From: a virus
Lineage: Duplodnaviria; Heunggongvirae; Uroviricota; Caudoviricetes
DNA: 12,778 nt
Strand: one strand, 5' to 3'
IMG/VR virus record: IMGVR_UViG_2711768056_000012
Coordinates: 1-12,778 of that record
In this document: piece by piece, positions 1 to 12,778 of the stretch
Layout of the letters: the number at the start of each line of letters is the position of its first letter
Numbering within the stretch: the first letter of the stretch is position 1
Program-made: the position numbers and the translations under genes
Notes under the pieces: generated by a model
Seen by the model: only the letters and a program-made list of their open reading frames with translations
Told to the model about the DNA's origin: nothing
Database searches by the model: none

Positions 1-192
1 TCAGGAGCATTTCTGATTAACGCCACCGTTAAGAATCCACCCTTCAACAGCTTCACGAAGGTATGATTTGGGGTGGGTTCTGACTGGCTTCGGAAATCCG
101 TGCCGTTTGGTATAGTTCCAGATTGTCTGACGTGATGAAACACCGAGCTTGTTCATCACTTCTTTCTCAGGAATCAGGCTGGTATCGGTCAT
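1..192 (-). CDS. Xis/AlpA-family small DNA-binding protein (putative excisionase), 63 aa
   Basis: Complete ORF with ATG at 192..190 and TGA at 3..1. GGAGA Shine-Dalgarno about 7 nt upstream. Translation has an AlpA/Xis-like pattern (GVSSRQTIWNYTKRHGFPKPV ... EGWI). Sits at the distal end of the leftward operon where lambdoid xis lies. Family assignment is from recall, not a search. Confidence 0.5.
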   Translation of the reverse strand: MTDTSLIPEKEVMNKLGVSSRQTIWNYTKRHGFPKPVRTHPKSYLREAVEGWILNGGVNQKCS

Positions 193-271
193 CTTAATTC
201 TCCAGGCAAAAATAAACCGCCATACAGCGGCTCTATCAGATATGAACAGGCCTCATCGAGTGTGAGGCGGG

Positions 272-616
272 TTAGTCCTTGCGTAGCTCGCTGATTCTTC
301 TGTAAGTCTCTGGTGCTTTGTTCCCGTACGTCTTCATTTCAGACTTCAACAGAGCAACGAGTGAATCCCATTCGTTGAGGATTCCTTTGAATGCCGGAAC
401 GCGCTTTGCAACCTTGTCGAATGAATCCCTGATTTCTGGGATCTGCTCAACAAGTGCAACGCATCGTCGGAAATCGGCTGCGTCATGTGGAGCGCCGAAG
501 TGATGACCATAGATATTCTTTTTCAGGCCACATGCGATTGAGGCAAGAGTTGCGCTACTGATGCCGACATCGCCAGTCGATTGCCATTTCAAAACCTTCA
601 TAGCCAAATCTGACAT
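272..616 (-). CDS. hypothetical phage protein, 114 aa (start taken at internal ATG 616)
   Basis: ORF-track frame 272..643. ATG at 616..614 is preceded by GGAGA (revcomp of 621..625) at good spacing. The longer 643 start would run into the upstream hairpin. No recognisable motif. Confidence 0.45.
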   Translation of the reverse strand: MSDLAMKVLKWQSTGDVGISSATLASIACGLKKNIYGHHFGAPHDAADFRRCVALVEQIPEIRDSFDKVAKRVPAFKGILNEWDSLVALLKSEMKTYGNKAPETYRRISELRKD

Positions 617-620
617 TTCT

Positions 621-652
621 TGTCTCCAATAAAAAACCGCCATCAGGCGGTT
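621..652 (-). terminator. putative intrinsic terminator (7-bp stem, 4-nt loop, T-tract) on leftward transcript
   Basis: Plus strand aaccgcc-atca-ggcggtt (635..652) preceded by an A-run at 627..634, so the minus-strand RNA has a hairpin followed by UUUUUUAUU. Sits between the 57-aa ORF and the 114-aa ORF. Confidence 0.4.
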
Positions 653-812
653 TGGTGTTCTTTCAGTTCTTCAATTTGAATATTGGTTACTTCTGCATGT
701 GCTATCTGCGCCCATATCATCCAGTGGTTATAGCAGTCATTGATGTCCTCTGCTTCGATAACTCTGTCGAATGGCTCTCCATTCCATTCACCTGTGACTC
801 GGAAGTGCATTT
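639..812 (-). CDS. small hypothetical protein, 57 aa (below ORF-track cutoff)
   Basis: Hand-translated: ATG 812..810 preceded by GGAGA at 6-nt spacing, giving MHFRVTGEWNGEPFDRVIEAEDINDCYNHWMIWAQIAHAEVTNIQIEELKEHQTA. Stop lies in the loop of the 635..652 hairpin. Confidence 0.3.
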
Positions 813-820
813 ATCATCTC

Positions 821-848
821 CATAAAACAAAACTCGCCGTAGCGAGTT
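821..848 (-). terminator. putative intrinsic terminator downstream of the AT-rich moron gene
   Basis: Plus strand aactcgc-cgta-gcgagtt (831..848) preceded by A-rich 821..830. On the minus strand this is a 7-bp stem hairpin followed by UUGUUUUAU. Confidence 0.45.
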
Positions 849-898
849 CAGATAAAAGAAATCCCCGCGAGTGCGAGGATAGTTACTTGTTCATATTA

Positions 899-1180
899 TT
901 AATCGTCAATGTATTTTGAGCATTGTGGGCAATCATCAATCCCACAATACGATTCATATGCATCCTTTATTGCGTCGCGGGCTTCAGTAAGAGTATTGAA
1001 TAAGTTGCAGCTATTATCTTTTTGATATAGGTAAGTTCCTAATTTATAAGCAGAAGAAGCATCATTTCCGCTGTCTAAAATTACATCGTTATGGATTCTG
1101 CACCTTGCAAGAACTCCTGATCCCATAAGGGTCTGCATAGCCCATTGCTCTTGATCTTCACACAAATCATGAATGCTCAT
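899..1180 (-). CDS. AT-rich moron: small Cys-containing hypothetical protein, 93 aa
   Basis: ORF-track frame 899..1198 begins at a GTG; the first ATG is 1180..1178 (MSIHDL...) with a GAGAGGTG SD-like sequence upstream. Local GC is visibly lower than the neighbours (a 60-nt hand count at 901..960 gave about 35% versus about 53% in a sample at 11041..11100). Flanked by an AT-rich upstream region (1199..1294) and a downstream hairpin terminator. C-terminus has C-x4-C-x2-C (YCGIDDCPQC). Confidence 0.5.
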   Translation of the reverse strand: MSIHDLCEDQEQWAMQTLMGSGVLARCRIHNDVILDSGNDASSAYKLGTYLYQKDNSCNLFNTLTEARDAIKDAYESYCGIDDCPQCSKYIDD

Positions 1181-1294
1181 TTCAACACCTCTCTTCACGT
1201 TTCACACACGTTAAGATTAACAGTGTTTTTACATGCTTTGGAAGATTTATTTTATAAAAACTCTTTTAATACAAATAGATATAATAGTTCACTA

Positions 1295-2122
1295 TTATAG
1301 CTCCTTTAATCGAGGCGGTTCTGGTAGTGGCATCCAGTGTGACGGCTCACATACCCCCTCAACACCATTCATGTAAAAGAATTGAAATAACCCTTTACCT
1401 TTGTGAAACCCTACCATCTGCTCTTTTGTGTCTGAGCAATAAACCAAAACATCTTCTTCGTTCGGCATTCGCTCACTACAGCTTATCCAACCATCCGGAG
1501 TTACCGGAGAGTTGCCATTCACAAGGTCAGCTCGAACATATAGCGTGTCATCATGGTGCTGATTGTGGCTGCACCACGTTAATTCGCTTAACTCGCCATC
1601 TTCTGGCCATACTCCAGCCGTTTGCAGCCAGATATGGGCTGGCGCATCTTTGCAAGGTGTATTAACTGGCAACTTGTAAGTTTGGCTTACAGGTTCGGCA
1701 CCATGAAGCATGGCGTCGCTCCGCTCTATGCCATCCAGCGCGATTCGCAGTGCATGAATTGTGGTAGAGCTATCGTTTGGGGCTATTCCATATCGCTCGA
1801 ATACAGCTAAATGGTTGCGCATAATCTCAGGCGTAAGCTCTTTGTAAGCATAAGCAAGAGGCTCTGATGCATTATCCGGCACAACCGACGCAGGCGCGGC
1901 AGCATAAACAGGAATAACGTCCGGTTGCTCTTTATTGCTTTCATCCGTTAAAGCCCAGAATAATTTTCCAGCCGGATGTTTGAAAATATAAGCAACTGGA
2001 TCTGCTTCCAGCGATGCCAGTGCAATTTCATAAGCCCGGCGTTCAATATTGTCTCGAACGTCCAGGCTGCTGATACGCTCTTTGATTTCTTTAATCAGTT
2101 CTTTGTCGGTGAAAGTGGTCAT
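1295..2122 (-). CDS. phage protein with C-terminal DUF551-like domain, 275 aa
   Basis: ORF-track frame 1295..2245. Start taken at ATG 2122..2120 (MTTFTDKELIKEI...), preceded by AAAGGAGAG and abutting the upstream gene stop (TGA-T-ATG). The C-terminal stretch DGWISCSERMPNEEDVLVY...GFHKGKGLFQFFYMNGVEGVCEPSHWMPLPEPP resembles the DUF551 domain common in enterobacterial prophage early-left genes (recalled). Confidence 0.55.
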   Translation of the reverse strand: MTTFTDKELIKEIKERISSLDVRDNIERRAYEIALASLEADPVAYIFKHPAGKLFWALTDESNKEQPDVIPVYAAAPASVVPDNASEPLAYAYKELTPEIMRNHLAVFERYGIAPNDSSTTIHALRIALDGIERSDAMLHGAEPVSQTYKLPVNTPCKDAPAHIWLQTAGVWPEDGELSELTWCSHNQHHDDTLYVRADLVNGNSPVTPDGWISCSERMPNEEDVLVYCSDTKEQMVGFHKGKGLFQFFYMNGVEGVCEPSHWMPLPEPPRLKEL

Positions 2123-2123
2123 A

Positions 2124-2732
2124 TCACTCTCCTTTAATGCGAATGCCAGCGGCGCGGATAGATTTCCATTGTTTCCACATTCGGTTGAAGTCTGTGCCTG
2201 ATAAGGTTGCGTTACGGTATCCAGTTTCAGTACGCAATCCTTCAAGCGTCGATTTGGAGATACAAATTGAATGCATTACCCATGATTCAAACAAATCACG
2301 CTCCCGGGCTTCGCAACTTTGCTTACTCATCTCTTCGATACGTTCAGCCATCGCAGCACACTCTTCAAAGTTGCTTAATGCTTTTCGCTCCCATTCGGCG
2401 CATTGTTTTCCAAGCTCTGCAATCAGCTTGTCTTTGCCTTCCAGCTCAACACGCAGCTTCCCTACCGTTAGCGCAATATCCTCGTTCTCTTGGTCGCGGC
2501 GTTTGATGTATTGCTGGTTCCTTTCCCGTTCATCCAGTAGTGCCAAAGCAACCTTTGGATTAAAGGCAGCAATAAATTCAGCGTTGTTTTTCAGAACGTG
2601 TTGCGCAATGGCCTGACTACTTAGTCGGACCTCATAACCACGTGCGCCACGGTGTGGTTTATATGAGTCCCAGTCTCCCCACGTTGCTTTCTCTGCCGCC
2701 TCACGCAGTGCCTGGTAATTAATTTTGGTCAT
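2124..2732 (-). CDS. hypothetical phage protein, 202 aa, coiled-coil-rich (possibly Ea22-like)
   Basis: ORF 2124..2732, ATG 2732..2730. Stop abuts the next gene start. The central region is charged and heptad-like (LALLDERERNQQYIKRRDQENEDIALTVGKLRVELEGKDKLIAELGKQ). Ea22-like assignment is tentative. Confidence 0.5.
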   Translation of the reverse strand: MTKINYQALREAAEKATWGDWDSYKPHRGARGYEVRLSSQAIAQHVLKNNAEFIAAFNPKVALALLDERERNQQYIKRRDQENEDIALTVGKLRVELEGKDKLIAELGKQCAEWERKALSNFEECAAMAERIEEMSKQSCEARERDLFESWVMHSICISKSTLEGLRTETGYRNATLSGTDFNRMWKQWKSIRAAGIRIKGE

Positions 2733-2733
2733 A

Positions 2734-3033
2734 TCACATCACCCTGAAGCCGTTGCATTTACGTAAGAAATCGCAGATATAGCCTTTCATTTTTTCATGC
2801 CAATCTCGATCATTCCCATTGCACCAACCATCAGGTGGAGTCCAGTTTTCTATCAGAGCAGCCATTTTCTTTGCTTTCGCCGGAGTAGCTGTTGCGGTAT
2901 CGCAGTAATGACGAGTGTTAACCAACGCATCCATACCATCGATATCAAGTACGCAAAACCATGTGTGATTCGGCATTTCAACAGATGGTATTTGTTGCCC
3001 ACGTCGACGTTTATCAATAAGACATACAGTCAT
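2734..3033 (-). CDS. hypothetical protein, 99 aa
   Basis: ORF 2734..3033. Its ATG (3033..3031) overlaps the TGA (3032..3030) of the upstream gene in an ATGA arrangement, suggesting translational coupling. No recognised motif. Confidence 0.5.
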   Translation of the reverse strand: MTVCLIDKRRRGQQIPSVEMPNHTWFCVLDIDGMDALVNTRHYCDTATATPAKAKKMAALIENWTPPDGWCNGNDRDWHEKMKGYICDFLRKCNGFRVM

Positions 3034-3656
3034 GGTTCCACCTTCTCTATTTGCTTAAGACCGTCTCTCACTGCATTAAGTACGCGTTCCAGATACTGGT
3101 ATTTCGGGTTTGGTACCGTTGGCCAGTCGGCATACCACGGATCATCACCAAAGAGATTCAGCAGTTTGTTACCGACGCCGAAACAACAGCAGCTTTCTTT
3201 TACGTCATCGGCGTTTTCCGCCTCGTCCCACATTTCGCGAGCCTGTACCGCGTCGATTTCTCTCTCTCTTCGTAACTTTATGATTTCTGACTTCACGAAA
3301 AGCAGATTTGCATCGTTGTCATCGTCGACCGTGCTTCGCAGTTGAGGTTCGAAATAGCCGATTAGATACTCGTTGCTGACCCGCTTAATGAACGTCTGCA
3401 CATCATCACCGCCCATAGCAAACCAAGCCGCAGTCCACGCTTTTCCGTAGCAGGTGATGGTGATTCTTCCCTTACCAGGTTCGTAGTTTTCAATCATCAC
3501 TCGAACCGGATCTAGTCGCTCTGCACCGGTTATAACGAATGACAACACATCAATCTTTTCAACCGTTACACTCACTGTTTGCCTCCTTTGCTCGCTGATT
3601 CCACTCTGCTCTAACCTCTGAATAAAAAATCGCGCAGTCATTTCCAGGAGCTGCAT
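3030..3656 (-). CDS. hypothetical protein (about 208 aa; start uncertain)
   Basis: ORF-track frame 3030..3767 overlaps the Lar-like gene for over 200 nt at its 5' end. Candidate ATGs at 3656 and 3641 have only weak SDs; an in-frame GTG at 3548 just after the Lar stop is also possible. Contains an acidic patch (STVDDDNDANLLF) and a CCC motif. Confidence 0.45.
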   Translation of the reverse strand: MQLLEMTARFFIQRLEQSGISEQRRQTVSVTVEKIDVLSFVITGAERLDPVRVMIENYEPGKGRITITCYGKAWTAAWFAMGGDDVQTFIKRVSNEYLIGYFEPQLRSTVDDDNDANLLFVKSEIIKLRREREIDAVQAREMWDEAENADDVKESCCCFGVGNKLLNLFGDDPWYADWPTVPNPKYQYLERVLNAVRDGLKQIEKVEP

Positions 3657-3795
3657 ATTTGCTACCAGATTGAGCGCGACACGTACCGCATCGAACGAAA
3701 TAGAATCGACCGCCAGAGCCATATTCAGGGTGATCTGCTTCGCTGGCAACGTGCGCTGCACCGCCACAGAATGGACATGGTAGTAGGTTGCTCAT
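3559..3795 (-). CDS. lar: Lar-family restriction-alleviation-like protein, 78 aa
   Basis: Start taken at ATG 3795..3793 ([16 protein letters not shown]...), which overlaps the TGA of the upstream 186-aa gene (ATGA). The CPFCGG ... RCGTCRAQ zinc-ribbon-like pattern matches what I recall for the Lar family (Rac prophage Lar). Confidence 0.5.
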   Translation of the reverse strand: MSNLLPCPFCGGAAHVASEADHPEYGSGGRFYFVRCGTCRAQSGSKYAAPGNDCAIFYSEVRAEWNQRAKEANSECNG

Positions 3796-4352
3796 GAATG
3801 CACTCCCTTGTGAAGCTGTTCCGCACAATGCAGCAGGGCGTCAGTCGCCTCTTTCACCGTAACGCAGTCGCCATCGTCCAGCCCGGACACCGACGCGTGC
3901 TTAACGAACGCCGCGCAAAGGTCATCAAACGCCTTAGCCCGGACTTCAGTCAGGAAAGCATCGGTGGCTGGGGTGTCTGATTGTATATACTTTGCGCGAT
4001 AGTCATTCCACCCTCTTGCATACATGGGATTAACTTGCACTCCATCTTTTACGCAATATGCCTGCCCTCCACGGTTGATAACCTTGATTTCGTCCATAGC
4101 GCCAGACTTCAGACCCGCATTCTCCGCTGCCAGTGCCGAAAACTTCTCGTGTGCCAACTTAACAGCCGAATCAGCCTGCTTAATTGACTCAATCGCTTTC
4201 TGTTGGTCTTCGGCCAGCGCCAAAATCTTGGCCTCCGCTTCAGCAAATTTACGCACCAGATATTCAGCGTTTGTTTCGTTAACCTTTAAATCTCGTGGGA
4301 TGCATTTACCTTTCAGAAAACCATCCATCTCAATTAGTGACATTTGTTTCAT
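3792..4352 (-). CDS. hypothetical phage protein, 186 aa, N-terminal coiled-coil
   Basis: ORF 3792..4352. ATG 4352..4350 overlaps the TGA of the upstream small ORF (ATGA). N-terminal half is alanine/glutamate-rich and helical-looking ([45 protein letters not shown]). Confidence 0.55.
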
Positions 4353-4513
4353 TTCTTCCCACTCCGCAACATCGCATTAAGATATTTGTTGTCATTAACA
4401 GAACCGAAACTATTTCTCTTAAGCAATTCCTCTCTCGATGGCATTGGCTTTACGCGTTGGCGAATAATCATTTCTGCCGGAAGAATGCCGGGATTGTATG
4501 CAAGTCCTCTCAT
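4349..4513 (-). CDS. small hypothetical protein, 54 aa (start uncertain)
   Basis: Frame of the 4349..4663 ORF. The internal ATG at 4513..4511 (MRGLAYNPG...) is preceded by GAGGAA and avoids overlap with the 97-aa gene. Its stop overlaps the downstream ATG. Confidence 0.3.
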
Positions 4514-4523
4514 GGTAAATTCC

Positions 4524-4817
4524 TCAGTCATTACTGATAGCGCCATAGCGTGAGCGGTAATTACGCAGTCGCGGGTCAATTTCAGGGAAGTGGGTATATG
4601 TGGCTTTGCGGAATGGTCGGATTGATGTCTGGTAAATTCGCTCGCGTTCTTCTTTCTCTGCAAGCCATATACAATGGCGAAATTCCTTTTCCTCTTTCGT
4701 TTCCTGCGGTAGCGACATTATCAGGTCGTAGTTTTTTCTGAATTTATCCAGCACCTCCGATACGGAATTGCCGGAACAGCGGCGCGGGTCATCCGCACCA
4801 TACTGAGGCGCTGGCAT
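4524..4817 (-). CDS. hypothetical protein, 97 aa
   Basis: ORF 4524..4817 with ATG 4817..4815 preceded by a strong AGGAGAAAAT SD, immediately downstream of ssb. Charged and Arg-rich, no recognised motif. Confidence 0.5.
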
Positions 4818-4830
4818 GATTTTCTCCTGA

Positions 4831-5337
4831 TTAAATTGCGTGAATAGCGTGACGAGGGAAGGGGAGAGTTACTGGTGCAAAGGGTATATCGTCGTCAAAA
4901 TCCATCGGAGGTTCGTTGTGTTGTGCTGGTGATGATTGCTGCTGTGGCTTCTGTGATTGCCTGCTGGCTGCTTGTTGTTTGCTGTCGCCAATGCCGCCAA
5001 GCATCTGCATCACGCCATTAATTCCGACATGAACCTCGGTTGTGTAACGGTCTTGCCCTGACTGGTCTTTCCACTTTCTGGTTCTCAGCATTCCCTCGAA
5101 ATAAATCTGATCACCTTTTTTCACATACTGCCCCACGACCTCAGCCAGTTTCCCGGATACAGCAACACGATGCCATTCAGTCAATTCCTTTTGCTCGCCA
5201 GTATTTTTATCTCGCCATTGTTCTGACGTGGCTATTGTCAGGTTAGCGAACGCTGTTCCTGATGGTGAGTATCGAACTTCCGGGTCTTGTCCTACCCGAC
5301 CAAGGATAATCACCTTATTTACGCCTCTGCTTGCCAT
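4831..5337 (-). CDS. ssb: single-stranded DNA-binding protein (SSB), 168 aa
   Basis: Translation has a typical SSB OB-fold N-terminus ([44 protein letters not shown]...), a Gln/Pro/Gly-rich linker and the acidic C-terminal tail ending in DFDDDIPF, characteristic of bacterial and phage SSBs. Confidence 0.9.
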
Positions 5338-6045
5338 TTATGCCGCCTGTTTTAGTTCGTTAACTCTGATGTTCATTACCTGAACGCATTTAGCCTGCGC
5401 TTCCTCGTTGCCAGCCATTAATTGCCAGTCACGCTGATAACGCTCGATGAGTTTTTTCTTATCAGTTTCTTTCGATGCATAATCGCTGAAGTCTTTCAGG
5501 ATTTGTTCGCAGTCAACCGATGGAGATTTCTGGTTGGTATTTTCTGGTGATGGTTTGTTATCTGATGCTGGGATTGCCCAGCCGGGCAGCGTTGGAGGGA
5601 GCCAGTAAAACCCTGTTCCATCCTTCAGTTTTGCCCTGTGCCACCCCTGCTTTTTATCGAGAGATGTTTGTGCGAAACCTTCCTCAAGGTTATACAGATA
5701 CCGACCGATTCCCCATTGAACGGCAGCGCGCTTCATTGCACCGGAACGACCACCTTTGACGGCTTCTACTTGCGTGTTTTCAGCAGCATCCCATTTGGTT
5801 ACCCATTCGGAATCAATCTTGATTGATATGCCGCATTCAACTCCGCCGTTGTTGGGAATATCGCGGTATTCATTGCGCCATCCTGCTTTGCCGCAAACAT
5901 CGTCCAGGCGTTTCATGATTGCCCTGTTCGTGACATAAGCCAGCACCATAGCCCACACTTTTCCATCGCGTGTTTTACCGCTTTGCTGTATTCGCCATTC
6001 GATATCTTCAGGGCTGAATGGCTCATCGAATTTATTCAAATCCAT
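5338..6045 (-). CDS. Rad52-like single-strand annealing protein (Sak-type recombinase), 235 aa
   Basis: ORF 5338..6045 with ATG 6045..6043 and a GAGGTG SD. Stop TAA directly abuts the ssb ATG. The motif VKGGRSGAMKRAAVQWGIGRYLY resembles the conserved core of phage Rad52/Sak-family proteins (recalled). Occupies the position of lambda bet. Confidence 0.6.
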   Translation of the reverse strand: MDLNKFDEPFSPEDIEWRIQQSGKTRDGKVWAMVLAYVTNRAIMKRLDDVCGKAGWRNEYRDIPNNGGVECGISIKIDSEWVTKWDAAENTQVEAVKGGRSGAMKRAAVQWGIGRYLYNLEEGFAQTSLDKKQGWHRAKLKDGTGFYWLPPTLPGWAIPASDNKPSPENTNQKSPSVDCEQILKDFSDYASKETDKKKLIERYQRDWQLMAGNEEAQAKCVQVMNIRVNELKQAA

Positions 6046-6144
6046 AATTCACCTCAGAATGGACATGGCCCAAGGAAATAACGCTGGTTTAATACTTCGA
6101 CTCTGGACAAATTAAGGCATACCCGCATTCCTTCGCGGTCACCA

Positions 6145-6303
6145 TTATGGCGATACCAGAGAGCTTTCTGCGTGTACATGCGTCTCTGTAACTTGCTCTC
6201 CTTCACTGTGGTTGCAAGTAACATGAATATCTCCTTCGTTACCGATTAATTCTTTCATCTGACGAATGAATTCTTCGTCTGACCAGTTATCTGTAAAACT
6301 CAT
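6145..6303 (-). CDS. possible small ORF, 52 aa (speculative)
   Basis: Hand-translated from ATG 6303..6301, which overlaps the TGA of the Kil-like ORF: MSFTDNWSDEEFIRQMKELIGNEGDIHVTCNHSEGEQVTETHVHAESSLVSP. SD is too close to be convincing; expression would depend on coupling. Confidence 0.2.
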   Translation of the reverse strand: MSFTDNWSDEEFIRQMKELIGNEGDIHVTCNHSEGEQVTETHVHAESSLVSP

Positions 6304-6452
6304 TTCCTGCGATACCACGGAAGGTTGATAGCTGATTTCATCGCTTTATTTGCTTCAAGCCACATTTTTGAATCACCAATAAATCTGGCTATTACTGCTT
6401 TGTTCTGTGCAGCACGAAGCATCTGGTGATTAATGGCTATTTCATTGCGCAT
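6300..6452 (-). CDS. Kil-like small protein candidate, 50 aa (below ORF-track cutoff)
   Basis: Hand-translated from ATG 6452..6450, preceded by GGAGGCGTT at 5-nt spacing: MRNEIAINHQMLRAAQNKAVIARFIGDSKMWLEANKAMKSAINLPWYRRK. Lies immediately distal to cIII, where lambda has kil, and is of similar size. Assignment is by position and size only. Confidence 0.4.
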   Translation of the reverse strand: MRNEIAINHQMLRAAQNKAVIARFIGDSKMWLEANKAMKSAINLPWYRRK

Positions 6453-6571
6453 AACGCCTCCAGTTGTTTCTTTGCTGCTCTGATTAATTGTTTAACTCGG
6501 CGTGATAATTCAGATTCGTGCGGGTAGAAAGCGGACATGACGCCGCTACCCGCGAGCTGAAAGTGCATCAT
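6437..6571 (-). CDS. cIII: CIII-like protein (protects CII from FtsH), 44 aa
   Basis: Internal ATG 6571..6569 of the 6437..6676 ORF is preceded by TAAGGAG at 6-nt spacing. The product MMHFQLAGSGVMSAFYPHESELSRRVKQLIRAAKKQLEALCAMK resembles lambda CIII as I recall it (AIAG...SESLLERITRKL...). The longer 79-aa form would span a terminator hairpin. Confidence 0.65.
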   Translation of the reverse strand: MMHFQLAGSGVMSAFYPHESELSRRVKQLIRAAKKQLEALCAMK

Positions 6572-6635
6572 GGGTAACTCCTTATATTTGATTGCATAAC
6601 GAAAACGCCTCGAGTGAAGCGTTATTGGTATGCAT

Positions 6636-6661
6636 ATAAAAAAGCCCTCACACTGGAGGGC
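6636..6661 (-). terminator. putative intrinsic terminator upstream of cIII (tL1-like)
   Basis: Plus strand A-run 6637..6643, then gccctc-acactg-gagggc (6644..6661). On the minus-strand RNA this is a 6-bp GC-rich hairpin followed by UUUUUUAU. Confidence 0.5.
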
Positions 6662-6723
6662 AAAGAAGATTTCCAATAATCAGAACAAGTCGGCTCCTGT
6701 TTAGTTACGAGCGACATTGCTCC

Positions 6724-6751
6724 GTGTATTCACTCGTTGGAATGAATACAC
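6724..6751. repeat. 9-bp inverted repeat (GTGTATTCA ... TGAATACAC) in the leftward transcript
   Basis: gtgtattca at 6724..6732 and its reverse complement tgaatacac at 6743..6751, separated by 10 nt. Intergenic, between the 80-aa ORF and the tL1-like terminator. Confidence 0.4.
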
Positions 6752-6789
6752 AGTGCAGTGTTTATTCTGTTGCTTATTCCAAAGCAAAT

Positions 6790-7032
6790 TTAACCATCAA
6801 CAAACTCTTCTGGTAATTTATCAACTATTTGATGACTTATTATCAGCCATTTGCCATCCTTCGTTTCGTATGCATATTTCTGGTCTTTTATCATCAGGTG
6901 TTCGGCTACTGCCTTAACTGCTTGCTCGGTGACATCTTCTTTCTTTCCTACCCACATTCCTTTTTCAGTGTTTAATGTTCCTTGAAAAATACGACCGCTT
7001 AATGGGCTTGCGCCCATAGTTTTTACTCTCAT
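6790..7032 (-). CDS. hypothetical protein, 80 aa
   Basis: ORF 6790..7032. Weak SD; start could alternatively be the ATG five codons in. Lys/Glu-rich. In the lambda ral/ea10 neighbourhood by position only. Confidence 0.45.
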   Translation of the reverse strand: MRVKTMGASPLSGRIFQGTLNTEKGMWVGKKEDVTEQAVKAVAEHLMIKDQKYAYETKDGKWLIISHQIVDKLPEEFVDG

Positions 7033-7096
7033 GTATCAGCTCTCAAATAATTGGTTTGCTGCCAAAACAATGAACCATCCGGAAATTCCAGATAGT

Positions 7097-7321
7097 TCAT
7101 AATTCACTCTTCAATACTTCCAGCTTACTAATCGCCGAAAGATATCCGCGCTGATAGGGCATCATCATTCCTTCGAGCTTGCCACTTCTTAACTCCTTCC
7201 TGAGCAATTGTATTGCTTGATCAATAACCTCTGACTTAGCGTCCTTTATGGCTTGCTTGCGGGGCTTTGCTTTCTGCTTTGGCAGATTTCTCAAGCATGA
7301 TGGAATGTATGTCTGATTCAT
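7097..7321 (-). CDS. hypothetical basic protein, 74 aa
   Basis: ORF-track frame 7097..7324 begins at GTG; the ATG at 7321..7319 is preceded by GAGGT at 6-nt spacing and lies directly after the N stop (TAA 7327..7325). Confidence 0.45.
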   Translation of the reverse strand: MNQTYIPSCLRNLPKQKAKPRKQAIKDAKSEVIDQAIQLLRKELRSGKLEGMMMPYQRGYLSAISKLEVLKSEL

Positions 7322-7324
7322 CAC

Positions 7325-7597
7325 TTACCTCGCTGTCAGTTGTTTTGATTTCCGGTAGCCTGCCGCGTAAATGGCTACGTTTGGCAGGCAAATACTTCCA
7401 CTGCATTCATCTTCCTTCTTGCAGCGAAGGCTTCCGAGTGATGCTGCTTTGTCTGCTCTGACGCAACCAGAGAGCTTTAGCGCAATTTTTCGCGCCAGTC
7501 GCTGTTCTTGCATTGCCTGCTCACGTTGAGCCTGTCTGCGTGCTCTGCGGCGATTTCTGGCGTTATCGTCAGCCAGATATGTAATGACTACTGTCAT
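7325..7597 (-). CDS. N: N-type transcription antiterminator, 90 aa
   Basis: ATG 7597..7595 with a GGAGG SD. N-terminal arginine-rich motif (DNARNRRRARRQAQREQ). C-terminus AAGYRKSKQLTAR resembles the P22-type N (gene 24) C-terminus as recalled. First gene downstream of pL and nutL. Confidence 0.85.
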   Translation of the reverse strand: MTVVITYLADDNARNRRRARRQAQREQAMQEQRLARKIALKLSGCVRADKAASLGSLRCKKEDECSGSICLPNVAIYAAGYRKSKQLTAR

Positions 7598-7703
7598 GTT
7601 GACCTCCGATGATTGACTTTGGCGGTGACGCGCCGGGTGCTTATCTTCCGGTTGCCGTCGTGCAGCTGCACTTCACGTCACCCCAAAGCCAACTACTCTT
7701 TGG

Positions 7704-7746
7704 TTCCCGCATTTCGGCGGGACAATCCCATCAATGTTAAAGAGCC
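7704..7746 (-). promoter_or_regulatory. nutL (boxA at 7737..7746, boxB hairpin at 7704..7722)
   Basis: Read on the minus strand, boxA is GGCTCTTTAA, followed after about 14 nt by boxB, which is 19/20 identical to the nutR boxB stretch. Lies between pL and N. Confidence 0.7.
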
Positions 7747-7791
7747 TGCCAATATGTTCCGTTTGGCTACCAGCGTCCTGCTGATGGCTAA

Positions 7792-7820
7792 AGAATACTG
7801 TAGGTATTTTATTGTGTAAA
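7792..7820 (-). promoter_or_regulatory. pL promoter candidate (-35 TTTACA, 17-bp spacer, -10 TATTCT)
   Basis: On the minus strand: -35 is the revcomp of 7815..7820 and -10 the revcomp of 7792..7797, with an exact 17-nt spacer. Both hexamers overlap operator sites. Confidence 0.5.
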
Positions 7821-7879
7821 TACCCAAGGTATTTATTTTTGATGAAATAATGATAAGCAAATGAATACAAAGGATATTT
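7793..7879. promoter_or_regulatory. oL operator cluster: three 17-bp sites with AATAC-N5-GTATT dyad symmetry
   Basis: GAATACTGTAGGTATTT (7793..7809), AAATACCCAAGGTATTT (7818..7834, a perfect palindrome) and the weaker GAATACAAAGGATATTT (7863..7879). Same half-site consensus as the oR sites. Confidence 0.6.
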
Positions 7880-7965
7880 ATTTTTTTCGGTGTCTGCTTG
7901 TTCAGTGCTTTTTATGCGGGATATGTGAAGTGGATCCCGATAGCTATTGCTGCCGGGATTATAGG

Positions 7966-8334
7966 TTAGTCAGCGAAGGTTAAGACGAGAATTACCTTAA
8001 TGATATCTGCTACAACAGACACGGCCATAGATAAACCAAAGACAATCCAAGCCATAGAGATGTCTTCACTACCATCGTATAGAGTTCCGTAATCACTGGT
8101 GTAAGGCGTAAATGTCGCGCCTTGATACAACAGGTATAAGCTTGAACCATAGAGGATAAATGCAGATATCCCTTGTATTGCTATGATCACTAGAATCATG
8201 AAACGAGCTGATCTATGCGCCCAAGCCTGGCTTATTTTTTCTGATAGAGATTTCGCAATAAAAGCATGCGCTAAGCCGTAAATTGTCGAGATTGCCAACA
8301 TCCCAAAAAAGCTTGCTATAGCGGTTCCAACCAT
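7966..8334 (-). CDS. small integral membrane protein in the rexAB-equivalent slot (candidate exclusion/abortive-infection protein), 122 aa
   Basis: ORF-track frame 7966..8355 begins at TTG; the ATG at 8334..8332 is preceded by AAGGGG and lies 17 nt downstream of the cI stop, consistent with co-transcription with cI. Three long hydrophobic segments separated by a basic loop (KSLSEKISQAWAHRSAR) and an acidic loop (TPYTSDYGTLYDGSEDIS). No similarity to lambda RexB that I can recognise. Confidence 0.6.
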   Translation of the reverse strand: MVGTAIASFFGMLAISTIYGLAHAFIAKSLSEKISQAWAHRSARFMILVIIAIQGISAFILYGSSLYLLYQGATFTPYTSDYGTLYDGSEDISMAWIVFGLSMAVSVVADIIKVILVLTFAD

Positions 8335-8351
8335 AATCGCCCCTTGCGTGA

Positions 8352-9068
8352 TCAAACCAGCCTTAGTTTTGTCTCAATTGCAACGCCTATAATCTTGCAG
8401 TTTCCATTGATTGGCACGAGAGGCCATGCAGGATTAAGTCCCTTGAGGTATTTATTTCCGCCGTCGATTATCAGCTTCTTGAATGTTGCTTCGTTAGAGT
8501 CAGAAAGTTTTGCTATGACCAAGCTGCCGTTGATCGCCTCCCTTCCGGTATCGAAAAGAACGAATGTTCCCTCTGGAATGCTTAACCCAACCGGTGCCGT
8601 CATTGAATCACCTTCCACTTTAAGCCAGAACGCATTACCTTGAATATGCGCGTCAGACTCAAGCCAAACATCTATGTCTTTAATGGTGTATGGTTCGCAT
8701 GCTTCACACCACGAGCCAGCCTGGATACTGCTTAACACCGGATACCTCTTTCCTGCTCTGTATTCCCCTGCATACCTTACGTTGGCATCGCTCTTAAGGC
8801 TTTCTGCCTGTTCTGCAACCTTGGCAGCAATTGACTGGCTAAAATCAGCAATTGAGACTTGCAACAGTCGTGCAAAACCAGATGCAACCTCAACGTTTAG
8901 CGCGTTTCTGCCATTAAGATAATGCCCTACCGCTCCTTGGGTGATACCCAGTTCATCAGCGATTGAGTATTGGGTTATCCCCAATTCTTTCTTTTTTGAC
9001 TCATACAAAGCCTTAAGCCGCTTAGCGTCTTCGAGCTGTTCTGTCGTCAGTGATTTTTTATTTTCCAT
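8352..9068 (-). CDS. cI: CI repressor (HTH DNA-binding domain plus LexA-like S24 autopeptidase domain), 238 aa
   Basis: N-terminus closely resembles lambda CI as recalled (KKSLTTEQLEDAKRLKALYESKKKELGITQYSIADELGITQGAVGHYLNGRNALN). C-terminal domain carries the Ala-Gly cleavage site (SIQAGSW), the catalytic Ser (EGDSMTAP) and Lys (TFKKLI). Divergent from cro across an operator region. Confidence 0.92.
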   Translation of the reverse strand: MENKKSLTTEQLEDAKRLKALYESKKKELGITQYSIADELGITQGAVGHYLNGRNALNVEVASGFARLLQVSIADFSQSIAAKVAEQAESLKSDANVRYAGEYRAGKRYPVLSSIQAGSWCEACEPYTIKDIDVWLESDAHIQGNAFWLKVEGDSMTAPVGLSIPEGTFVLFDTGREAINGSLVIAKLSDSNEATFKKLIIDGGNKYLKGLNPAWPLVPINGNCKIIGVAIETKLRLV

Positions 9069-9100
9069 AGCTTAATTCTAATAGCTAAGGTACTTAAACT
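9066..9100 (-). promoter_or_regulatory. pRM candidate (-10 TAGAAT; cI mRNA possibly leaderless)
   Basis: On the minus strand TAGAAT (revcomp of 9075..9080) ends 6 nt before the cI ATG, which would make the transcript start at or near the AUG as in lambda pRM. The -35 is poor (TTTAGT), consistent with an activator-dependent promoter. Confidence 0.35.
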
Positions 9101-9144
9101 AAAAATACCCTGAGTATTGATTGCTTTGAATACCTGTAGTATTC
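9079..9144. promoter_or_regulatory. oR operator cluster: OR3-like (9079..9095), OR2-like (9103..9119), OR1-like (9128..9144)
   Basis: AAATACCCTGAGTATTG and GAATACCTGTAGTATTC are clear AATAC-N5-GTATT dyads, with centres 25 bp apart. A degenerate third site AATAGCTAAGGTACT lies next to the cI start. Lambda-like tripartite layout. Confidence 0.65.
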
Positions 9145-9145
9145 T
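9117..9145 (+). promoter_or_regulatory. pR promoter candidate (-35 TTGATT, 17-bp spacer, -10 TATTCT)
   Basis: TTGATT at 9117..9122 and TATTCT at 9140..9145 with exactly 17 nt between; overlaps OR1 and OR2. Same -10 hexamer as the pL candidate. Confidence 0.55.
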
Positions 9146-9174
9146 TTGTTCATGGTTAATAACGGAGAGTGCAT

Positions 9175-9369
9175 ATGATTCGAATGACACTTGCCGATTA
9201 CGCCAAAATCCATGGACAGGCTAAAGCAGCCAGTGACTTTGGTGTAATCCAGTGCGCTATCAGCAAGGCCATTCTGGCAGGCCGTAACATTATGGTTACG
9301 GTAAAGCCTGATGGCAGTGTGATTGGAGAGGAGGTTCGACCTTTCCCAAGCAACAAGAAAAACAAATAG
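9175..9369 (+). CDS. cro: Cro repressor, 64 aa
   Basis: ATG at 9175 preceded by GGAGAG (9163..9168); the ORF-track start at 9169 is a GTG two codons upstream. Translation [62 protein letters not shown] matches lambda Cro closely as recalled. Confidence 0.88.
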
Positions 9370-9375
9370 TAACAC

Positions 9376-9420
9376 CGCTCTTTAACAGTCATGGTCCTCA
9401 TTCCCGCCGAAATGCGGGAA
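9376..9420 (+). promoter_or_regulatory. nutR (boxA CGCTCTTTAA at 9376..9385, boxB hairpin at 9401..9420)
   Basis: boxA matches the lambdoid consensus CGCTCTT(T)A. It is followed 15 nt later by a hairpin (stem uucccgc/gcgggaa, loop cgaaau). Located just after the cro stop, as in lambda. Confidence 0.7.
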
Positions 9421-9477
9421 TACAACGCGCATAAGTTGATGCGCATAACTTCTTATTTGTTAAGGAAATACTTACAT

Positions 9478-9756
9478 ATGGAACTTACAAGTACTCGCAA
9501 GAAAGCGAATGCAATTACAAGCAACATCCTGAATCGAATTGCTGTACGTGGTCAGCGAAAGGTTGCCGACGCGTTAGGGATTAATGAATCGCAAATTTCG
9601 CGATGGAAAGACAGCTTCATCCCCAAAATGGGAATGCTTCTGGCTGTTCTTGAATGGGGTGTTGAAGACGAGGAGTTGGCGGAACTGGCTAAGAAAGTAG
9701 CCAGAATGCTGACAAAAGAAAAAGCCCCGAAGAACGGCGAATTCTTCGAGGCCTGA
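9478..9756 (+). CDS. cII: CII transcriptional activator, 92 aa
   Basis: Start taken at ATG 9478 (MELTSTRKK...), which aligns the HTH ([19 protein letters not shown]) and the [10 protein letters not shown] motif with lambda CII as recalled. The ORF-track start at 9391 would lie inside nutR. Confidence 0.85.
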
Positions 9757-9790
9757 TGTAGAAAGACTGGATCAATCCACAGGAGTAATT

Positions 9791-9937
9791 ATGACAAAAC
9801 AACTCAGTCCTTACCAGGACAAAATTCACAAACACATACTACGTGATCGCTTCCTGTCCAGCTTCAAGCAGCCTGGTCGATTCCGGGCTGAGTTGGAAAA
9901 AGTGAAGCTGATGCAGAAGGAGAAAGGTCATGAGTAA
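9791..9937 (+). CDS. small hypothetical protein between cII and O, 48 aa
   Basis: Hand-translated: ATG 9791 preceded by AGGAG (9781..9785) at 5-nt spacing, giving [48 protein letters not shown]. Stop overlaps the O start by 8 nt. Confidence 0.35.
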
Positions 9938-10790
9938 TATTGCAACCGTAACACATTTAAGGCCTTCACAACGGCCTGTGGAGCGTCGTGTGGCAGAAGT
10001 TGAAGATGGTTATACCCGTCTTGCAAATGCCCTGTATGAAGAGCTTATCGGCGCAGATTTAACGAAAAATCAGAGCAAGGTTGCCCACGCCATATGCCGT
10101 AAAACATACGGCTACGGTAAAAAGATGGATCGCATCTCTGATAGTCAGTTAGCTCAAATTACCAGGCTGCCAAGACAGAAGGTAAACAAGGCCAAGAATG
10201 AGCTTATCGCGATGAAGGTTATCCTTCGCGAAGGCCAGCAAATCGGTCCTAACAAGAACATCGAAGAATGGCAAATCGAAGGGTGTCACTACTCTGGTGA
10301 TAATGTCACTGCATTGGTGACAAAAAGTGTCACCAAAACGGTGACAGCGCTGTCACCAAAACAGGGACACACAAAAGAAACTATTACAAAAGAAAAAAGA
10401 AATAATAAAAACACTATGTCCGAAAGTGTTCGGACGGAGTGTGAAAAATCACCTGACCGTCACGAAGAAACCGACAAGGCATTCGAGGAAATATTCTGGT
10501 GTGCAGGCATGCGGAAAGCCGGGAAGAAAAACGCAGCTTCGGCATTCAGAACACAGTTCAGGGAATGGCGTAAAACTACCAGGGGTACGGCAAGCGAGTT
10601 TGCCACGATGCTGGCAGAAGACATCGCATGCAGGAATGGTAAGCAGTTCGGATTCGACAGGTTGTTACCATCGAGCTACCTGAACGGTCAGCGCTGGAAC
10701 GACGAAAAGCCAGAAACCATTCAACCACAATCCAAACCATCATCCGCAATCACCGTATCGAAAACTGGCTACGTGTTTTTCGACAGGTGA
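9930..10790 (+). CDS. O: O-like replication initiator, 286 aa
   Basis: N-terminal domain resembles lambda O as recalled ([56 protein letters not shown]...GPNKNIEEW). AGGAGA SD. The coding sequence contains iterons and an AT-rich tract in its linker region. Confidence 0.85.
10281..10362. repeat. replication origin iterons (four repeats built on GTCAC ... GGTGA dyads) inside the O gene
   Basis: GTCAC occurs at 10285, 10305, 10329 and 10352 (spacing 20 to 24 bp), each paired with GGTGA(C/T) at 10296, 10316 and 10340. An A-rich tract follows at about 10363..10417, then an inverted repeat gtccgaa-agtg-ttcggac at 10418..10435. This mirrors lambda ori layout. Confidence 0.6.
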
Positions 10791-10793
10791 ACC

Positions 10794-10901
10794 ATGAAAT
10801 CAAAAATCAAATCGCTACTGGTCGCTGGTTATAACCACGGCTGGTTAAGTATTTCGTTTGTCGATTTCTGGTTTAAAAATCTCAATCTGAGGGAATCATG
10901 A
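10794..10901 (+). CDS. possible small ORF, 35 aa (speculative)
   Basis: ATG 10794 lies 4 nt after the O stop; TGA at 10899..10901 overlaps the ATG of the primase-helicase. Product MKSKIKSLLVAGYNHGWLSISFVDFWFKNLNLRES. No convincing SD. Confidence 0.2.
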   Translation: MKSKIKSLLVAGYNHGWLSISFVDFWFKNLNLRES

Positions 10902-12778
10902 CACCAAGTGAACTTAGCGACCTGCTTTGGGCGCAGGTTGACAGGGTGGCTCCGCACCTGTTGCCAAACGGCAAGAAAGAGGGGCATGAGTGGGTTGCCG
11001 GTAACGTCAACGGTGACAAGGGAAACAGCCTTAAGGTCAACCTTAGCGGCAAGAAAAAATGGGCTGATTTCGCTGAGGGAGACGGCGGTGACATGCTTGA
11101 TTTGTGGATGGCATGTCGTGGAATTAACCTGCATCAGGCTATGCAGGAAGCGAAAGCATTTCTCGGTATCAAGGATGACGATCACCATTTCGATGCCAAA
11201 CGTGAGAAAAAATTCTCCAGACCTGATCGCAAAAAAATCGCCCGCTACGTTACCAGAACAGAATCCCATCTTGAGTACCTGCAATCGCGTGGCATATCGC
11301 CAGAAGTCGTAAAGCGCTACGAGGTTGTCAGCGGCAAGGTGTGGAATGGAGAGCGGGAACTGGATGCTCTGGTGATTCCGTACAAACGCGATGGTGAGTT
11401 GTTGCAGGTCAAGCGAATCAGCACTGAGCGCCCGGACGGGAAGAAAGTCATTATGGCAGAAGGTGATTGCGAACCTTGTCTGTTCGGATGGCAGGCTCTG
11501 GACGCTGGCGTGAGGGCGGTTGTACTTTGCGAAGGCGAAATTGATTGTATGAGCTATGCGCAATACGGCATCTCGGCGTTATCCGTGCCGTTTGGTGGCG
11601 GGAAAGGCGCTAAGCAGCAGTGGATTGAGTTTGAGTATCACAATCTCGACAGGTTTGAGGAAATATTCATCTCGATGGACGTTGATGATGTTGGTCGTGA
11701 AGCCGCAAGGGAAATCGCAAGCCGACTCGGTGAACATCGTTGCCGTCTTGTTACTCTGCCGTACAAAGACATCAACGAATGCCTGATGAACGGTGTTACC
11801 GAGGATGAAATCTGGCAGTACATCGGCACGGCATCCTACTTCGACCCTGAAGAACTCTACAGCGCGCGAGAGTTTTACCAGGACACTATCAACGCTTTCT
11901 ACGGCAATCAGCAGTATCTGTTTAATCCACCGTGGGAATCTCTGGCAGATAAATTCCAGTTCCGTGAGGCCGAGTTGACGCTGGTCAATGGTGTGAACGG
12001 TCACGGAAAAACGGAGGTTGTCGGACATATGGCTCTTGAGGCAATGCGTCAGGGTGTGAAGACGTGCATCGCGTCACTTGAGCTGAAGCCTGGTATTCTC
12101 CTTAAGCGCCTTACCCGTCAGGCGACGTGCTGCAAGATGCCGCCAGTGCTGGAAATTGACTCTGCATTTAAATTTTATGACGAAAGACTTTGGGTGTTTG
12201 GTCTGACCGGAACGGCGAAAGCCGACAGGCTGATCGAAATATTCGACTACGCTCGCCGCCGATACGGGATCCAGTTATTCATCATCGACAGCCTGATGAA
12301 ATGTGGCATAGGAGACGATGACTATAACGGGCAGAAGGCGTTTGTTGACTCGATTTGCGACTTCAAAAACAAAACAAACTCCCACGTCATTCTCGTTACT
12401 CACTCGCGAAAAGGAGACAGCGAAGAAAAACCAACCGGGAAAATGGACGTAAAAGGCTCTGGAGCGATAACAGACCTGACAGACAACCTTTTCATCATCT
12501 GGCGTAACAAGGCTCGCGAGAGAGCATTACAGAGAGTTCAGAGTGGTGAAAAGATGTCAGAGAAGGACGAACAGCTACTGGCATCTCCGGCATCTGTTTT
12601 GATGCTTGAAAAACAACGTAACGGCGAAGGTTGGGAAGGTGGTGTCCCGTTGTTCCTTGACGAGCAATCGCACCAGTTCCTGCAACTTGAATCAGGATCG
12701 CCATATAGCTACATCGCCAATATGCCGAAATCGGAATATGACGAGGCGTGGCGACAGGAAAACGTGACGGAGTATTAA
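10898..12778 (+). CDS. fused DNA primase (Toprim) / DnaB-like (SF4) replicative helicase, 626 aa
   Basis: GAGGGAA SD before ATG 10898; complete ORF ending TAA at 12776..12778. Toprim signatures are present (VVLCEGEIDCMSYAQ and FISMDVDDVGREAA with DxD). C-terminal RecA-like domain has Walker A (LVNGVNGHGKTE) and Walker B-like (IQLFIIDSLMK) motifs. The N-terminal region looks like a primase zinc-binding domain lacking the cysteines (WADFAEGDGGDMLDLWM). Confidence 0.8.
   Translation: MTPSELSDLLWAQVDRVAPHLLPNGKKEGHEWVAGNVNGDKGNSLKVNLSGKKKWADFAEGDGGDMLDLWMACRGINLHQAMQEAKAFLGIKDDDHHFDAKREKKFSRPDRKKIARYVTRTESHLEYLQSRGISPEVVKRYEVVSGKVWNGERELDALVIPYKRDGELLQVKRISTERPDGKKVIMAEGDCEPCLFGWQALDAGVRAVVLCEGEIDCMSYAQYGISALSVPFGGGKGAKQQWIEFEYHNLDRFEEIFISMDVDDVGREAAREIASRLGEHRCRLVTLPYKDINECLMNGVTEDEIWQYIGTASYFDPEELYSAREFYQDTINAFYGNQQYLFNPPWESLADKFQFREAELTLVNGVNGHGKTEVVGHMALEAMRQGVKTCIASLELKPGILLKRLTRQATCCKMPPVLEIDSAFKFYDERLWVFGLTGTAKADRLIEIFDYARRRYGIQLFIIDSLMKCGIGDDDYNGQKAFVDSICDFKNKTNSHVILVTHSRKGDSEEKPTGKMDVKGSGAITDLTDNLFIIWRNKARERALQRVQSGEKMSEKDEQLLASPASVLMLEKQRNGEGWEGGVPLFLDEQSHQFLQLESGSPYSYIANMPKSEYDEAWRQENVTEY

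Follow-up and report, generated by a model that had tools for sequence, protein, structure and literature searches.

In phage lambda, the initiator protein O recruits the complex of P and DnaB. In phage T7 and in plant Twinkle, the template-reading element of the primase is a zinc finger. The P22-like phages have more than one solution to the problem of starting replication, and an ES18-type module has been recognised as the third type of replication module among them (PMC10307801). Furthermore, surveys of the "Eru" replication types of Stx phages have described many replication units other than O/P, including primases (PMC8044961, PMC8951638). Here, we analysed a stretch of 12,778 nucleotides (in the following, the window) from a virus of the Caudoviricetes (IMG/VR record IMGVR_UViG_2711768056_000012, positions 1 to 12,778), which represents the early region of a P22-like/lambdoid phage and in which a lambda-type O gene is followed by a gene with primase and helicase domains. 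We interpret this gene as encoding a bifunctional replicative primase-helicase of the T7 gp4/Twinkle type that serves as the second essential replication protein of an ES18-type lambdoid module, and we put the probability of this reading at about 0.75.

The gene as such is already known and correctly annotated, and it belongs to a recognised alternative replication module of lambdoid and P22-like phages. The homolog in ES18, gp61, carries the annotation "putative primase/helicase; similar to phage T7 gene 4". The original prediction, which was made from the DNA sequence of the window, had regarded the arrangement as unexpected. There is less cause for surprise than this suggests, since the arrangement has been annotated since the ES18 genome and is one of the module types distinguished in PMC10307801. 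From the text of the two Eru surveys, we made no match between the module in the window and a named Eru type. What is new here is that the C-terminal domain of O and a 35-amino-acid (aa) micro-ORF (open reading frame) are co-inherited with the primase-helicase. We found no description of the two as a co-inherited cassette in the searchable literature, nor of a conserved zinc-binding domain (ZBD) that has lost every ligand throughout a family while standing beside an apparently intact active site.

A primase and a helicase on one polypeptide

The reading frame of 626 aa begins with an ATG, lies on the plus strand at 10898-12778 and has its stop codon at the very end of the window. A GAGGG sequence resembling a Shine-Dalgarno element is located 5-6 nt 5' of the ATG. 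The protein can be divided as follows, where mean identities are those to the query over a MAFFT alignment of 94 full-length family members, which are ~35-50% identical to it.

10898..12778, +: predicted bifunctional primase-helicase gene, 626 aa plus stop
10898..11173, +: residues 1-92, DnaG-type ZBD fold without Cys/His ligands
11174..11251, +: residues 93-118, linker from the ZBD-like domain to the primase core (mean identity 0.21)
11252..11797, +: residues 119-300, primase RNA-polymerase domain (RPD), consisting of an N-terminal subdomain and Toprim, with R131, K172, E212, D261, D263 and D291
11798..11932, +: residues 301-345, linker between primase and helicase, equivalent of the gp4 linker (from the gp4 alignment; mean identity 0.23)
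11933..12532, +: residues 346-545, RecA-type helicase core of superfamily 4 (SF4), with AAA_25 and DnaB_C, aligned to gp4 helicase residues 260-507
12533..12775, +: residues 546-626, variable C-terminal tail (mean identity 0.25), to which PHROG 23248 and PHROG 32971 are confined

The presence of Toprim and SF4 domains on a single chain, as originally predicted, is borne out by matches in Pfam, PHROG and the PDB. Pfam annotation found both the Toprim domain (Toprim_2 at residues 209-296, E 3e-12) and the DnaB-like domain (AAA_25 and DnaB_C at residues 355-594), PHROG 239 "DNA primase/helicase" spans residues 2-622 (E 2.7e-171), and NCBIfam yields a partial dnaG match over residues 26-143. When PDB sequences were searched with the single sequence, the best relatives were T7 gp4 (E 2e-23) and Twinkle (E 3e-14), and with a profile of 97 family sequences the same two proteins were matched with E 7e-56 and E 7e-46, respectively. 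No match to the P, DnaC or IstB families was obtained in Pfam, PHROG or NCBIfam. The AlphaFold2 (AF2) model of residues 1-330 has a pLDDT (predicted local distance difference test) of 93 and a pTM (predicted template modelling score) of 0.89. The linker of residues 93-118 was modelled less confidently, with pLDDT values of ~74-84 in this model and ~61-79 in a model of the N-terminal part only.

The catalytic residues of primase and helicase are almost invariant across the family, as the counts over the 94-member alignment show.

E212, Toprim acidic residue: 94/94
D261, Toprim acidic residue: 94/94
D263, Toprim acidic residue: 92/94
D291, Toprim acidic residue: 94/94
R131, RPD basic residue: 93/94
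K172, RPD basic residue: 89/94
K371, helicase Walker A: 92/94
E395, helicase catalytic Glu: 91/94
D464, helicase Walker B: 91/94
H502, helicase motif H3: 92/94
R536, helicase Arg finger: 80/94

The Toprim domain thus has the acidic metal-binding residues (E, DxD, D) of the T7 gp4/Twinkle type, and the HMMER alignment pairs E212 with gp4 E157 and D291 with gp4 D237. Likewise, the N-terminal subdomain of the RPD carries the basic cleft, with equivalents of gp4 R84 and K122. On the same polypeptide, the C-terminal SF4 RecA-type helicase displays a Walker A motif (GVNGHGKT, with K371), the catalytic E395, Walker B with D464, the His of motif H3 (H502) and the Arg finger (R536). An inactive primase of the metazoan Twinkle type, in which the Mg-binding residues of Toprim are lost together with the zinc ligands, would look different, since here the acidic residues are kept.

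Distribution of the family and integrity of the reading frame

The family is large. With a word-indexed search, 2,338 homologues were obtained, and as many as 5,632 sequences belong to the 99%-identity cluster by itself. An exhaustive HMMER search, for which the first 200 residues served as the query, gave 2,749 cluster representatives (50% identity) at E <= 0.001 and, at E <= 1e-10, no fewer than 709 such clusters. Among the best 150 of these 2,749 homologues, most are 580-650 aa long, and the same single-chain architecture of ~580-650 aa is shared by more than 90 clusters at the level of 50% identity. Among 5,426 complete E. coli genomes, 296 (about 5%) have the gene, annotated as "toprim domain-containing protein", and 287 complete E. 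coli genomes carry it at a coverage of at least 80%. A scan of genome loci, which was built on an alignment of 8 sequences and for which 80 loci were fetched, located relatives in Enterobacterales, Legionella, Coxiellaceae, Competibacteraceae, Geobacteraceae and others.

These data bear on the question whether the 626-aa frame might be an artefact in which a primase gene and a helicase gene were joined by a sequencing error, an outcome that the original prediction had named as its possible undoing. Split records do exist, for example in Min27, where "P" is followed by "ORF31 putative DNA primase", and in vB_EcoP-720R6, where there are two coding sequences. However, the architecture is unbroken in the more than 90 clusters, at the 80 genome loci from many taxa and in the 287 E. 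coli genomes, and the single-chain proteins T7 gp4 and Twinkle are matched over profile residues 126-534. Furthermore, the split annotation coincides with an intein-containing allele, at least in the Min27/Stx2 lineage. Because the one-polypeptide architecture is the same as that of T7 gp4 and Twinkle, the reading as two fused genes is excluded. Homologue lengths, genome loci and the match to gp4 and Twinkle all rule it out, and we give it a vanishingly small probability. The frame is a genuine single gene that is conserved in more than 90 distant homologues.

The intein is found in alleles of Stx2 phages that are 98% identical in their exteins. It comprises 342 aa with Hint and LAGLIDADG domains and is found in Stx2a_F451 gp36 (L002:2996-5902) and at the loci L033 and L034. 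The corresponding site in the window is empty.

12008..12013, +: codons K371/T372, empty intein insertion site; the intein of the Stx2 alleles splits the Walker A P-loop between GHGK and T

The first residue of the intein is Ala, a Trp is contained in "DHLWEV" and a Cys in "ECLCIMV", the last residues are "THN", and Thr follows as the +1 residue. In these sequence features, it resembles a class 3 intein. No literature on Stx together with intein and primase was found, and among the matches listed there was no co-mention of "class 3 intein" and Min27.

An N-terminal zinc-binding fold without its ligands

The N-terminal segment had been predicted to have the spacing of a primase zinc ribbon with the cysteines replaced, and this is confirmed by hhalign and by the Pfam register. 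The motif in question, WADFAEGDGGDMLDLWM, comprises residues 55-71 and aligns with YHCFGCGAHGNAIDFLM of DnaG. When the family profile was aligned to residues 1-110 of E. coli DnaG using hhalign (71 columns, E 0.001, probability 21%), the ligands Cys40, His43, Cys61 and Cys64 of DnaG fell on G35, N38, D57 and E60, and the serine column of the DnaG "PSF" coincided with S44, which is invariant in the primase-helicase family. The register to Zn_ribbon_DnaG of Pfam is gapless (26-92 to 26-92), and this family was matched by 6/36 family members, with a best E of 3e-4. In the first knuckle, the register could be off by one residue, and neither alternative offers a Cys or His. Over the 94 members, the four ligand columns are G (91/94), variable, D/E (94/94) and T/S/G. 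No Cys or His was present at any of the four columns among the family members surveyed, neither in these 94 nor in the 103 for which we surveyed the N-terminal residues. With the four CHC2 ligands aligned to G35, N38, D57 and E60, a Cys/His site is therefore impossible.

The remainder of the domain offers no substitute, as a conserved Cys or His was not found anywhere in it among the 103 members. Nearest relatives bearing the cysteines were not found either, since all of the best 150 of the 2,749 matches lack the ligands. The four-Cys or CHC2 ligand feature of the gp4/Twinkle-type and DnaG-type ZBDs is thus absent. Residue 33 is Cys in 28/103 members, and residue 48 is Cys in 22/103 and His in 29/103. 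These two residues sit on adjacent beta-strands of the ZBD-like domain and do not make up a four-ligand site.

The original prediction had spoken of a "degenerate or metal-free" domain, and the two parts of this description fare differently. The domain is not degenerate, as its mean identity of 0.47 makes it the second most conserved segment of the family, after Toprim (0.50) and ahead of the helicase core (0.40), whereas the linker that follows it has 0.21. This succession of a conserved ZBD-like domain and a variable linker is the same as in gp4 and DnaG. The near-invariant residues W55, F58, G64, D65 and L69 share columns with Y59, F62, G68, N69 and F73 of E. coli DnaG. By fold comparison, the domain has the three-dimensional fold of a DnaG-type ZBD, and AF2 gives a confident fold of the N-terminal part in the absence of any ligand. 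"Metal-free", on the other hand, fits, and judging from its residues the domain probably binds no metal. Its most likely role would be that of a template-binding, primer-handling module that is flexibly tethered to the primase core. Met residues after the ZBD-like domain, which would be candidates for internal starts like that of gp4B, are not conserved, and M66 is Leu in 83/103 members.

The initiator, the origin and a coupled micro-ORF

The genes and sites directly upstream of the primase-helicase are the following.

9930..10790, +: lambda-type O initiator gene (286 aa), N-terminal half with the Phage_rep_O origin-binding domain (Pfam, TIGR01610)
10284..10369, no strand: four 19-20-bp iterons with internal dyad symmetry (TGTCAC...GTGACA), presumed O-binding sites; repeat families D1 and D2, spacing 20-24 bp
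10370..10429, no strand: A+T-rich block (25% GC, from 60-nt composition windows) adjoining the iterons, presumed unwinding element
10398..10787, +: C-terminal domain of O, ~residues 157-286, inherited along with the primase-helicase and proposed to act in recruitment (PHROG 33384, E 1.7e-88)
10794..10901, +: conserved 35-aa micro-ORF (MKSKIKSLLVAGYNHGWLSISFVDFWFKNLNLRES), equivalent of ES18 gp60 (PHROG 21848, function unknown, E 4e-26)

The N-terminal half of O matches Phage_rep_O at residues 20-114 (E 1.2e-37) and TIGR01610 (E 1.7e-30). Iterons and an A+T-rich block within the O gene constitute the classic layout of a lambda ori, and in ES18 a rep_origin "similar to lambda ori" is annotated at the equivalent place.

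The C-terminal domain of O, for which Pfam gives no match, is inherited with the primase-helicase rather than with the rest of O. Residues 167-286 are ~97% identical (116/120) to the initiator of Stx2a_F451, whereas the N-terminal halves of the two proteins are unrelated, and the DNA match to Stx2 phages begins in the middle of O. Among the 80 loci, the C-terminal domain stands directly upstream of the primase-helicase in 30, and the N-terminal type of this O is found in 17. In distant taxa, there is an upstream ORF of 180-296 aa that varies in its N-terminus and always ends at the start of the primase-helicase. The N-terminus matches Phage_rep_O in one distant locus and is MarR-like in another, and two loci of Geobacteraceae (L064 and L078) have a common C-terminal half behind different N-terminal halves. 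There is thus a mosaic joint inside O, such that the C-terminal domain travels with the primase-helicase and the iteron-binding N-terminal half is exchanged. By analogy with O and P of lambda, the C-terminal domain would recruit the primase-helicase to the opened origin.

The TGA of the micro-ORF overlaps the ATG of the primase-helicase (ATGA), and the two genes appear to be translationally coupled through this overlap. The micro-ORF abuts the start of the primase-helicase in 31 of the 80 loci, and 26 distinct sequences keep a GYNHG motif. In those rows of the E. coli genome search that were displayed, the annotation beneath the match does not include it. Its product may be an accessory factor.

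The neighbouring genes

The window contains genes for an Erf-type annealing protein, a single-stranded DNA-binding protein (SSB), N, cI, cro, cII, a small ORF with DUF2740, O, the micro-ORF and the primase-helicase. In mEp043 and ES18, cII is followed by the small ORF, O, (gp60), the primase-helicase and the nin genes, and in mEp043 it is NinB that stands directly behind the primase-helicase. No P, DnaC or DnaB gene lies between cII and the nin genes in this stretch of mEp043 and ES18, so that the primase-helicase does stand in the place of lambda P, as had been proposed.

4831-5337, -: SSB (PHROG 44), early-left operon
5338-6045, -: Erf-like annealing protein (PHROG 1097), early-left operon
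9391-9756, +: cII, longest ORF 121 aa
9791-9937, +: 48-aa ORF between cII and O (DUF2740; PHROG 1913, labelled "tail protein")

The phage SSB could be a partner of the primase-helicase. The match of cII to Phage_CII starts at residue 30, and cII homologues have ~93-99 aa (the cII gene of mEp043 has 282 nt), such that the true start is probably downstream of 9391. The homologue of the 48-aa ORF in mEp043 is also named "tail protein" in RefSeq, a label that is doubtful because the ORF sits in the early-right operon. The cro/immunity part at 9100-9634 has no near-identical match in mEp043 or Sf101. With 9100-12778 as the query, the match begins at query position 535, which marks a mosaic boundary between immunity and replication modules.

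A model of replication and its alternatives

According to our reading of the gene, O would bind the four iterons inside its own gene and distort the adjoining A+T-rich block. The module-specific C-terminal domain of O would then recruit the phage primase-helicase, possibly aided by the coupled 35-aa protein, and the SF4 ring would assemble on the opened DNA, translocate in the 5' to 3' direction and unwind it. RNA primers would be made by the Toprim primase of the same protein and extended by host DNA polymerase III (Pol III). Neither the window nor the early-right regions of mEp043, ES18 and Stx2a_F451 contain a gene for a phage DNA polymerase, and the host polymerase therefore presumably extends the primers. 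The N-terminal domain would retain the fold of the DnaG ZBD and its non-ligand signature residues, held together without a Cys/His zinc site. All enzymatic activities of the protein are ones that we infer from its domains and conserved residues. Given a phage ring with a primase of its own, it is reasonable to infer that host DnaB, DnaC and DnaG are not needed at the phage fork.

A number of points weigh against this reading. Searches of the literature found no biochemical or genetic data on any family member. Zn_ribbon_DnaG (PF01807) does not reach the Pfam gathering threshold (12.9 bits versus a cut-off of 24.9, E 0.1). Pfam gave nothing on residues 1-201 even at E <= 1, and the isolated 118-aa domain produced Zn_ribbon_DnaG below threshold. 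A profile of the N-terminal domain found only two chance-level matches among PDB sequences (E 1.7), and the kinship with the DnaG ZBD therefore rests on the fold comparison, hhalign and a weak Pfam signal. That the C-terminal domain of O may recruit the enzyme is suggested by co-inheritance only. Finally, the form of T7 gp4 without the ZBD keeps its helicase activity and loses template-directed primer synthesis (PMC2910064), and human Twinkle, which has lost the zinc ligands, is not a primase (PMC9860392). The zinc-less domain thus puts the primase function in real doubt.

One alternative would be that the protein is a helicase only in practice, with a primase part that is a relic as in metazoan Twinkle, so that it would substitute for DnaB like P22 gp12 and leave priming to host DnaG. 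The disappearance of all four zinc ligands, the failure of ZBD-less T7 gp4 to make template-directed primers (PMC2910064) and the lost primase activity of human Twinkle (PMC9860392) all agree with this, and P22 gp12 is described as working with host DnaG (Wickner 1984, as cited in PMC8022706). Human Twinkle, however, has lost the Mg-binding site along with the ZBD ligands, whereas here the Toprim acidic residues are kept in 92-94/94 members. R131 (93/94) and K172 (89/94) of the RPD are likewise retained across sequences that are only ~35-50% identical, and a relic would not be held so tightly. We therefore consider this alternative improbable. Twice as much weight can be given to the idea, still on the unlikely side, that the ZBD-like domain has been repurposed and no longer reads the template. 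It might instead serve for docking, with the C-terminal domain of O, the 35-aa protein, SSB or else Pol III as its partner, or bind DNA in a general manner and so assist the loading of the helicase, which has been reported for the N-terminal domain of human Twinkle. The conserved residues, however, are mostly at non-ligand signature positions of DnaG (W55~Y59, F58~F62, G64~G68, D65~N69, L69~F73), and the tether to an apparently active primase core is retained. Besides, repurposing is compatible with an active primase and to this extent overlaps with the bifunctional enzyme that we favour.

It is also conceivable that the domain is not metal-free, but has a non-canonical metal site, for instance of carboxylates, in which the invariant D57 would act together with E31, D62 or D65. 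All members have an acidic residue (Asp or Glu) at position 57, and conservation is also high at D65 and E31. Yet there is no conserved Cys or His anywhere in the domain, Gly or free variation is seen at two of the four ligand positions, and the confident AF2 fold without any ligand points, if weakly, in the same direction. Tetrahedral structural zinc sites made of carboxylates alone are not a known feature of zinc ribbons, and we regard such a site as the least probable of these three alternatives, with little chance of being correct. A more specific version of the bifunctional reading goes further and would make the family a naturally zinc-independent, catalytically active primase of the DnaG superfamily, in which a metal-free ZBD fold still performs template recognition and primer hand-off, and in which loading at the origin occurs via the C-terminal domain of the initiator and the 35-aa protein. 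We put this forward tentatively, with a confidence somewhat short of even. No precedent of a zinc-less active Twinkle-type primase was found documented, and the paper on Dictyostelium Twm1 mentions no zinc, cysteines or finger.

If the enzyme primes, then the fold, and not the metal, is what matters, and a zinc-independent primase would be the first case in this primase class in which "ZBD function" is uncoupled from "zinc". The module would then amount to a compact three-gene replication cassette independent of host helicase and primase, and the co-inherited C-terminal domain of O and micro-ORF would define a minimal portable cassette for origin firing. Such a cassette could explain a possible replication of Stx and other prophages with this module that is independent of DnaB, DnaC and DnaG. 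The zinc-free conserved ZBD and the co-inherited parts are nonetheless modest details, which will not come as a surprise to specialists.

Comparison with known systems

The closest relative among described modules is that of ES18, where gp59 (O-like), gp60 and gp61 belong to the same families and have the same order of cII, small ORF, O, micro-ORF, primase-helicase and nin region. Between the window and ES18-type relatives, we see no essential difference. The same gene is gp55 of mEp043, gp52 of epsilon34, the gene labelled "P" in 24B, the gene of Min27 and gp36 of Stx2a_F451. At the DNA level, identity is 97-98% in mEp043, Sf101 and many Stx2 phages and about 87-92% in SEN22, ES18 and epsilon34. 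The window differs from mEp043 in its immunity region, with the DNA match starting only from ~9634, and from the Stx2 phages in the N-terminal half of O and the iterons, and its copy of the gene is without the intein.

With T7 gp4, the protein shares the sequence of a ZBD-type domain, a flexible linker, an RPD (N-terminal subdomain and Toprim), a further linker and an SF4 helicase on one chain, and the equivalents of gp4 E157, D207, D209, D237, K318, H465 and R522 align. However, the N-terminus of the T7 protein is a short Cys4 zinc ribbon of ~56 aa, whereas here it is a DnaG-type ZBD fold of ~92 aa without ligands. The two N-terminal domains do not align at the sequence level, overall identity is only ~25%, and T7 uses its own DNA polymerase and no O-type initiator. 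Metazoan Twinkle is an accepted family member that likewise lacks the zinc ligands, but in human Twinkle the Mg-binding residues of Toprim and the primase activity have disappeared as well (PMC9860392), whereas the family in the window keeps these residues almost invariant. The ZBD of DnaG (PF01807, CHC2; PDB 1d0q, 2au3) has four ligands, which here are replaced by G, N, D and E. Furthermore, DnaG has a C-terminal domain that binds DnaB, whereas the ZBD-like domain in the window is fused to a helicase.

The module resembles the lambda O-P and P22 gp18-gp12 pairs in that an O-type initiator with the origin inside its gene is followed by a gene for a helicase function, and the lambda and P22 initiators are likewise modular, with a DNA-binding N-terminal and a partner-binding C-terminal part. 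The difference lies in the partner: P of lambda is a loader that hijacks host DnaB, and gp12 of P22 is a DnaB-type helicase that uses host DnaG, whereas the partner in the window has both helicase and primase domains.

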